Shown piece by piece: positions 22,334 through 23,287 of a stretch of 32,004 bases of DNA. The number at the start of each line of letters is the position of its first letter. Position 1 is the stretch's first letter. Under the pieces are notes generated by a model. The model did no database searches and was not told the DNA's origin. It saw nothing but the letters and a program-made list of their open reading frames with translations. Where the stretch lies: NCBI RefSeq assembly GCF_003334815.1, contig NZ_QOWO01000042.1; one strand, written 5' to 3'. The translations under genes were made by a program, and so were the position numbers. The DNA comes from Escherichia coli (lineage in GTDB: Bacteria; Pseudomonadota; Gammaproteobacteria; Enterobacterales; Enterobacteriaceae).

Positions 22334-23287
22334 ATGATCGAAGTAAAACACCTGAAAACGCTACAAGCGTTGCGGAACTGCGGCTCGCTCGCAGCCGCTG
22401 CGGCGACGTTGCATCAGACGCAATCCGCCCTGTCTCACCAGTTTAGCGATCTGGAACAACGCCTTGGCTTCCGGCTATTTGTGCGTAAGAGCCAGCCGCT
22501 ACGCTTTACACCGCAGGGAGAAATCCTGTTGCAACTGGCAAACCAGGTACTGCCGCAAATTAGCCAGGCCCTGCAAGCCTGCAATGAACCGCAGCAGACG
22601 CGTCTGCGCATTGCCATTGAGTGCCATAGCTGTATTCAGTGGCTGACACCCGCGTTAGAAAATTTCCATAAGAACTGGCCGCAGGTAGAGATGGATTTTA
22701 AATCGGGCGTGACATTTGACCCGCAGCCCGCCTTGCAACAGGGAGAGCTGGATCTGGTAATGACGTCCGATATTCTGCCGCGCAGTGGCCTGCATTATTC
22801 GCCGATGTTCGACTATGAAGTGCGTCTGGTGTTAGCACCTGACCATCCACTGGCGGCGAAAACGCGAATTACACCGGAAGATCTCGCCAGCGAGACGCTA
22901 TTAATTTATCCGGTGCAGCGTAGTCGACTGGATGTCTGGCGGCATTTTCTTCAGCCGGCAGGCGTCAGCCCGTCACTGAAAAGCGTCGATAACACCTTAT
23001 TGTTGATTCAGATGGTTGCCGCGCGGATGGGTATTGCCGCGCTACCGCATTGGGTAGTAGAGAGTTTTGAGCGCCAGGGTCTGGTGGTGACCAAAACCCT
23101 GGGCGAAGGCTTGTGGAGCCGACTGTACGCCGCCGTGCGCGATGGCGAGCAGCGTCAGCCAGTTACGGAAGCGTTTATTCGCTCAGCGCGCAATCACGCC
23201 TGCGATCATCTGCCGTTTGTGAAGAGCGCGGAGCGACCCACTTACGATGCACCCACAGTGAGGCCAGGATCACCAGCGCGCCTGTAA
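22334..23287 (+). CDS. metR: LysR-type transcriptional activator MetR, 317 aa
   Basis: [63 protein letters not shown]... HTH N-terminus, recognised as MetR. Confidence 0.95.

Follow-up and report, generated by a model that had tools for sequence, protein, structure and literature searches.

The convergent genes metR and yigM (bioP) of Escherichia coli share their 3' ends on opposite strands over 113 bp, positions 23175 to 23287 of the window, as read from the ORF listing and the sequence. The window is the whole stretch of DNA that was analysed, 32,004 nucleotides in length. It corresponds to the reverse complement of MG1655 positions 4003146-4035149, and a window coordinate equals 4035150 minus the MG1655 coordinate. 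The shared segment comprises 37 codons plus 2 nt of either gene, and we confirm it as a genuine overlap and not a misannotation. The explanation that accounts best for the data, and that we hold to be probably right, is an ancient and entrenched convergent coding overlap with partitioned constraint. Selection appears to be divided along the overlap in such a way that the conserved core of each gene lies opposite the fast-evolving tail of its partner, and strong constraint in both frames seems to be limited to a stretch of about 18 nt.

Both reading frames are open up to their annotated stops, in the sequence as well as in RefSeq. The same gene ends are annotated by RefSeq/PGAP on MG1655p (metR 1635-2588, bioP 2476-3375) and in NC_000913.3 (bioP 4011076-4011975, metR 4011863-4012816). 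A preliminary description of this DNA had named the two genes and given the coordinates and the 37-codon length of the overlap, and the ORF listing, the sequence and RefSeq agree with it on each of these points. The overlap itself is already known from standard annotation and from the literature, where it was noted by Côté 2016 (PMC5120140). Elsewhere in the window a second convergent coding overlap, between tatD and rfaH, spans 4 bp (10814-10817, MG1655 4024333-4024336), and at the remaining convergent junctions read from the window annotation the genes lie 39-380 bp apart; locally, then, the 113-bp overlap is unusual. Upstream of yigM, the mechanical ORF for yigL (24150-25076, minus strand) encodes 308 aa from an upstream GTG, as compared with 266 aa for the annotated yigL (MG1655 4010200-4011000). 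The additional part lies over the 3' end of pldB and is in all likelihood untranslated. The features of the overlap region are collected in Table 1.

Table 1. Features of the metR-yigM region in window coordinates.
Feature	Position	Strand	Details
metR CDS	22334..23287	+	317-aa LysR-type regulator, ATG start; ORF, RefSeq, Pfam and PDB matches
yigM/bioP CDS	23175..24074	-	299 aa, GTG start; ORF, RefSeq "bioP: biotin transporter", Pfam, AlphaFold
Tail-to-tail coding overlap, 113 bp	23175..23287	both strands	ORFs, sequence, phase check
yigM stop TAA	23175..23177	-	MetR Phe281 (TTT) positions 2-3 plus Ile282 (ATT) position 1
YigM tail 285-299, apparently weakly constrained	23178..23222	both frames	opposite conserved MetR 282-296
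Segment apparently under strong constraint in both frames	23223..23240	both frames	YigM 279-284 (WVAPRS) opposite MetR 297-302 (K/R-S-A-E-R-P)
MetR tail 303-317	23240..23284	+	opposite the end of YigM helix 10 (263-278); YigM codon pattern
metR stop TAA and second in-frame TAA	23285..23290	+	YigM Phe262-Ile263-Thr264 codons
Peak of Rho-dependent termination region, internal to yigM	23446 (MG1655 4011704 +)	-	Adams et al. 2021, PMC7815308

MetR and YigM are both encoded by bona fide functional genes. MetR carries the Pfam domains HTH_1 (residues 5-63) and LysR_substrate (86-288). The structure PDB 5fo5 covers residues 1-92 of E. coli MetR, the DNA-binding domain, and MetR of Neisseria meningitidis (PDB 4ab5) can be aligned to residues 87-296 and no further. 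An AlphaFold model of MetR built from a shallow alignment is unusable (mean pLDDT 38), and the domain boundaries were taken from the PDB alignment and Pfam. The sequence is near-invariant up to Pro302 and variable beyond. YigM is BioP, identified by experiment as a biotin transporter (PMC5120140, PMC4049904). It contains two Pfam EamA domains (residues 3-128 and 139-275) and is predicted by AlphaFold as a 10-helix EamA/DMT transporter (mean pLDDT 84), the last helix, helix 10, spanning residues 259-283. Confidence in the model is good up to about residue 283, and pLDDT is below 50 across 283-299. Lengths of 317 aa for MetR and 299 aa for YigM recur in hundreds of protein clusters.

Within the overlap, MetR codon k faces YigM codon j where j + k = 581, and a phase check gives a pairing of MetR to YigM codon positions of 1:1, 2:3 and 3:2; no base is therefore synonymous (wobble) in both frames. 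The yigM TAA, together with the motif TTTATT, is found in 78/78 aligned species. On the other side, YigM Ile263-Thr/Ile264 read in antisense gives the metR stop (TAA or TGA), and Phe262-Ile263 gives a second stop behind it. Codon 318 of metR is TAA or TGA in 76/78 species, with a further stop at codon 319 in 63/78. This second stop becomes the functional one in two loci (L035 and L078), where MetR has 318 aa; among lineages, MetR lengths of 311, 312, 317 and 318 aa occur. Under random synonymous recoding, the tail frame stays open in 84% of trials for YigM and in 58% for MetR, and both frames are open in 77 of the 78 species, as against these expectations of 0.84 and 0.58. We considered and rejected the argument that an open frame implies selection, recoding keeping the frames open at the rates just given. 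It is the conserved placement of the two gene ends, exact in 77/81 loci and extending over three families, that goes beyond chance, and not the openness of the frames.

The distribution of constraint was analysed in a gapless alignment of 78 species that extends from the start of metR to that of yigM. Synonymous variation was compared with an expectation matched for amino acid and codon family, and parsimony steps were counted on a neighbour-joining tree built from non-overlapping columns; the 78 sequences are related to one another, and the tests assume one tree and comparable mutation rates at all sites. Codon-position diversity switches from the MetR pattern to the YigM pattern at MetR codon 303. 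Over MetR codons 282-302, diversity at positions 1, 2 and 3 is 0.034, 0.030 and 0.230, which is the MetR pattern; over codons 303-317, position-2 diversity is 0.40 versus 0.415 for YigM wobble bases elsewhere, which is the YigM pattern. The 78 species contain 10 distinct versions of MetR 282-302 and 68 of MetR 303-317, and for YigM there are 29 versions of residues 263-278 and 59 of residues 279-299.

Synonymous variation within the conserved end of MetR is itself depressed. At the wobble bases of codons 282-302 diversity is 0.231 versus 0.404 expected (P<5e-5), the lowest value of 282 metR windows, with a parsimony-step ratio of 0.42. The depression is strongest at codons 297-302, which face YigM 279-284: diversity there is 0.078 versus 0.395 expected, 1.17 parsimony steps are counted versus 13.95 (ratio 0.08), and the wobble bases of codons 299, 301 and 302 are invariant in 78/78 species. 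It is also present at codons 282-296, which face YigM 285-299, with a diversity of 0.292 versus 0.408 expected (P=0.002) and 7.73 parsimony steps versus 13.97 (P=5e-5, ratio 0.55). Relative to the synonymous rate, the YigM tail evolves at 55-72% over residues 285-299 and at 8-20% over residues 279-284. In the other half of the overlap, the wobble bases of YigM 263-278 have a diversity of 0.435 versus 0.450 expected (ratio 0.97, not significant), and the parsimony-step ratio is 0.71 (P=0.014), computed from 10 usable codons only. The last 15 residues of MetR change at 71-97% of the synonymous rate, and the last helix of YigM opposite them is conserved. The preliminary description had held that the two C-termini are mutually constrained; this would stand for the roughly 18 nt from 23223 to 23240, which look strongly constrained in both frames, and would give way to a partition of constraint in the rest of the overlap. 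Our search of the literature brought up no earlier analysis of the way in which the two frames divide the constraint, and we regard the partition as an incremental result.

The arrangement is widely conserved. A MetR scan with one genome per GTDB species yielded 80 loci, all with at least 90% MetR identity and belonging to about 30 named genera; together with MG1655p these make 81 loci, all of them Enterobacteriaceae by MetR identity. The overlap is exactly 113 bp long in 77 of the 81. Two loci have 116 bp, metR reading on there to the next in-frame stop; one has 98 bp, with a MetR of 312 aa, and one has 68 bp, with YigM shortened to 284 aa. Beyond the Enterobacteriaceae, the gene order with metE divergent from metR and yigM convergent with it (metE<-metR-><-yigM) is found with an overlap of 113 bp in Yersinia, 98 bp in Dickeya and 95 bp in Rahnella, the position of the yigM stop being identical in all three. 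Since the overlap occurs in these genera, it is older than the split between Enterobacteriaceae, Yersiniaceae and Pectobacteriaceae. Cross-species alignment had been proposed earlier as a check on the overlap; both frames run to their annotated stops, and the overlap is kept in relatives. We looked for a mis-assigned stop and for relatives in which the overlap is absent, the two outcomes that had been named as speaking against it, and found neither at the 81 loci or in Yersinia, Dickeya and Rahnella.

Within the species, the metR region is present in 5426/5426 complete E. coli genomes. One of them, NZ_CP159632.1, matches the region as two pieces that cover 43% of the query, and metR is probably disrupted there, as the locus is annotated as "hypothetical protein" and "LysR family transcriptional regulator". 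Among distant YigM homologues (35-51% identical; Vibrio, Microbulbifer, Shewanellaceae and Helicobacter), the protein is 282-296 aa long, and its tail extends 2-18 residues past the last helix and is unrelated to that of E. coli. Adjacency to metR was not found at the three distant yigM-homologue loci inspected, those of Vibrio and Microbulbifer among them. The sequence P0243 was considered as a distant YigM outgroup at 57% identity and set aside, being Dickeya-like with an internal garbled stretch, and the fragments P0244, P0248, P0250 and P0260 were rejected as frameshifted or of low quality.

Several residual signals lie within the tails. YigM Glu299 is invariant in the 78 species, because all of them keep one and the same wobble base in MetR Ile282, although this base is free to vary as far as MetR is concerned; background Ile codons have a mean diversity of 0.38, and none is invariant. 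YigM Val268 is GTG in 76/78 species. A GTY codon at this position would end MetR at 312 aa, as is seen in locus L022, and the same change has probably taken place in Dickeya, judging from the matching 312-aa length of MetR. YigM His276 is CAT in 78/78 species. With the significantly depressed MetR wobble variation opposite residues 285-299 and the invariant Glu299, the YigM tail does not look like a pure passenger; likewise, Val268, His276 and the parsimony ratio of 0.71 (P=0.014) leave room for some departure from neutrality in the MetR tail. The depressed synonymous variation could also come from an RNA-level or termination-related element and not from the partner protein. The motif Q-T-x-D-x-R of the YigM tail is common to E. 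coli, Yersinia, Dickeya and Rahnella. YigM proteins whose tail is cut short at 284-285 aa occur in nature, namely in locus L063 (L063:3387) and in the protein clusters P0195 and P0196, which have 42 and 66 member sequences, the latter including Salmonella serovar Gaminara. Because such truncations occur there, YigM 285-299 is suggested to be dispensable in some lineages at least. At the other end of the gene, one locus (L046, Kluyvera genomosp. 3 YDC799) has a stop at yigM codon 5 in the aligned frame, which could reflect a pseudogene, a sequencing error or the use of another start codon.

At the RNA level, a terminator/promoter scan found no terminator-like site in 22000-24400, where 2.9 are expected in shuffled sequence. 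There being no terminator between the genes, every full-length metR or yigM mRNA runs antisense to its partner over 113 nt or more. The earlier proposal that the 3' end of each mRNA is antisense to the other follows from this geometry and fits the listing of bioP-metR among the 165 convergent excludons of E. coli MG1655, a set derived from RNA-seq for which presence in at least 50% of transcriptomes was required (PMC12288877). Folding of the overlap RNA gave z-scores of 0.99 and 0.07 for the two strands, no stability beyond that of shuffled sequence. An Rfam search of 21900-24500 at a permissive E-value matched no family in the overlap. In the divergent metE/metR control region (22119-22293, plus strand), the families Ysr49 (27.7 bits) and V_AS5 (26.7 bits) were matched far below their gathering scores of 95-96, and these matches are probably due to chance or composition.

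Published termination data place a Rho-dependent region inside yigM, with a Rho score of 5.07 (P=1.3e-12; Adams et al. 2021, supplementary file 2, PMC7815308). In untreated cells the coverage across this region drops from 98 to 21, and with bicyclomycin it goes from 300 to 326 (PMC7815308). As the Rho score is computed from 800-nt windows, the peak position 23446 is approximate, and termination may take place anywhere around the yigM 3' end. Such a region would limit the yigM transcription that reaches the overlap. The curated Term-seq 3' ends of Adams et al. 2021 include none for metR or yigM (PMC7815308), and the supplements of an RNase III site study, in the part available to us, hold no entry for either gene (PMC5371410). 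The transcriptional interference and RNase III-sensitive duplexes for which the preliminary description had allowed are hypothetical at this locus, and a regulatory effect of the antisense overlap is possible but unsupported.

We propose the following explanation. metR and bioP abut without an intergenic spacer, each frame running into its partner until the first antisense in-frame stop, and this stop is supplied on both sides by a conserved Phe-Ile codon pair (TTY followed by AT., antisense TAA or TGA). The metR-proximal 63 nt would evolve as MetR, forming the end of its regulatory domain and carrying the partly constrained cytoplasmic tail of YigM, and the bioP-proximal 45 nt would evolve as YigM helix 10, carrying a MetR tail of 15 residues whose drift is almost unhindered. 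Transcription of yigM would be ended by Rho. We infer that the overlap arose when the spacer was lost and either frame came to be read as far as the next stop, and that both tails are largely passengers. An alternative is that one of the stops is mis-assigned, or that a frameshift or a lost stop has produced a lineage-specific 3' extension, so that the overlap is no stable feature. The shorter YigM homologues outside the Enterobacterales (282-296 aa, below 299), with their unrelated tails, could be taken in its favour. However, the stops are read straight from the sequence, the region is present throughout the complete E. coli genomes, the ORF ends are identical in 77/81 loci, the overlap recurs in Yersinia, Dickeya and Rahnella, and the 317-aa and 299-aa lengths hold across hundreds of protein clusters. 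We regard such an artefact as already refuted by these conservation data and give it next to no credence. Fully dual-functional coding, with both tails functional and the whole 113 bp under double purifying selection, is a further reading, with which the depressed MetR synonymous variation over codons 282-302, the invariant Glu299, the shared Q-T-x-D-x-R motif, the invariant wobble bases of Val268 (GTG 76/78) and His276, and the frames open in 77/78 species versus 0.84 and 0.58 under random recoding are all consistent. Against it, second positions of MetR 303-317 vary at the YigM synonymous rate (0.40 versus 0.415), 68 different MetR tails and 59 YigM tails exist among 78 species, the MetR tail differs in length among lineages, YigM truncations persist in nature, and the predicted YigM tail has a pLDDT below 50. 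We consider double selection over the entire overlap highly improbable.

The overlap could also have been selected as a regulatory excludon, in which polymerase collision and/or RNase III acting on a duplex of 113 nt or more leads to mutual antagonism of metR and bioP and couples methionine/SAM to biotin uptake. SAM is consumed in biotin synthesis (BioB, BioC and BioA), so a physiological link is conceivable. The sign that this reading predicts nevertheless looks maladaptive, metR going up and bioP down when SAM is scarce. In its favour, bioP-metR belongs to the published E. coli convergent excludome (PMC12288877), no intrinsic terminator lies between or inside the gene ends, and the arrangement is kept across three families. 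Yet entrenchment explains the conservation equally well, as separating the genes would need a duplication of the shared segment; Rho already lowers the read-through from yigM by a factor of about five ahead of the overlap or near it (PMC7815308); and neither the curated Term-seq 3' ends (PMC7815308) nor the RNase III supplements, as far as available to us (PMC5371410), contain an entry for metR or yigM. We judge this regulatory reading unlikely. A more far-reaching idea, to which we give a similarly small chance, concerns the clade-specific BioP tail (about residues 280-299, W-V-A-P-R-S...Q-T-x-D-x-R...E): it might be a functional module that arose de novo from the antisense strand of metR and whose conservation, combined with the unavoidable convergent transcription, would link the uptake of biotin to the methionine/SAM regulon of Enterobacterales. 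The overlap would then be an evolved coupling device and not an entrenched accident. An entrenched overlap with partitioned constraint remains our preferred explanation.

The shared DNA has practical consequences. Deletion alleles of either gene harm the partner, and phenotypes from genome-wide screens for either gene need care. The Keio design, said to be that of Baba et al. 2006, reportedly places the metR deletion such that it removes window positions 23175-23266 and with them YigM from about residue 270 onward, and the yigM deletion, reportedly spanning window positions 23196-24071, should remove MetR from about residue 288 onward. Côté et al. showed BioP function to be lost as well in the Keio metR deletion (PMC5120140). 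Another study describes growth of a bioH yigM::Km strain on a mineral salts medium and does not mention methionine in this connection (PMC4049904). The locus is in addition a natural example of DNA sharing in the costliest antisense phase and can serve as a test case for overlap-aware models of selection. Its obligatory mRNA overlap, lack of an intrinsic terminator and known Rho involvement make it tractable for the study of convergent interference. The current understanding of overlapping genes is unchanged by metR-bioP.

Several known systems resemble the metR-bioP junction in part. Overprinting (Delaye et al. 2008, as cited in bioRxiv 10.1101/724807) is similar in that YigM residues from about 280 to 299 and MetR 303-317 are antisense to an older coding sequence; overprinting, however, makes new genes, whereas here only short, weakly constrained C-terminal extensions of existing proteins appear to have been added. 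The pair is not mentioned in a preprint on long antiparallel ORFs. Non-canonical convergent termination, whether polymerases collide (bioRxiv 10.1101/2022.10.23.513370) or Rho acts (Adams et al. 2021), shares with metR-bioP the lack of an intrinsic hairpin and U-tract and a Rho region on the yigM strand, but differs in that for metR-bioP curated 3' ends are recorded for neither gene; the pair is not named in the collision-termination preprint (bioRxiv 10.1101/2022.10.23.513370). Excludons as compiled by ExcludonFinder (PMC12288877) are likewise convergent neighbours with overlapping transcripts, and bioP-metR is listed among them, mutual exclusion of expression being a putative property of this pair. 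The published convergent excludons overlap via 3' UTRs, whereas metR and bioP overlap by 113 bp of coding sequence, and their transcript overlap is therefore obligatory and not condition-dependent.

Related to metR-bioP are also the conserved convergent 3'-3' gene pairs of Rogozin et al. 2002, which, as described in PMC2478687, also consist of genes on opposite strands with each stop inside the partner. Palleja et al. 2008 report that overlaps longer than 60 bp are tolerated in no orientation but the convergent one, and that 338 genomes contain 54 possibly real cases of this length, mostly shared by very close species only (PMC2478687); the preliminary assessment that long convergent overlaps are uncommon agrees with this count. 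Set against the pairs of that survey, the 113 bp of metR-bioP amount to nearly twice the 60-bp threshold, and the overlap is kept in at least three families of Enterobacterales. The metR-bioP overlap is thus at the long, deeply conserved end of a known class.
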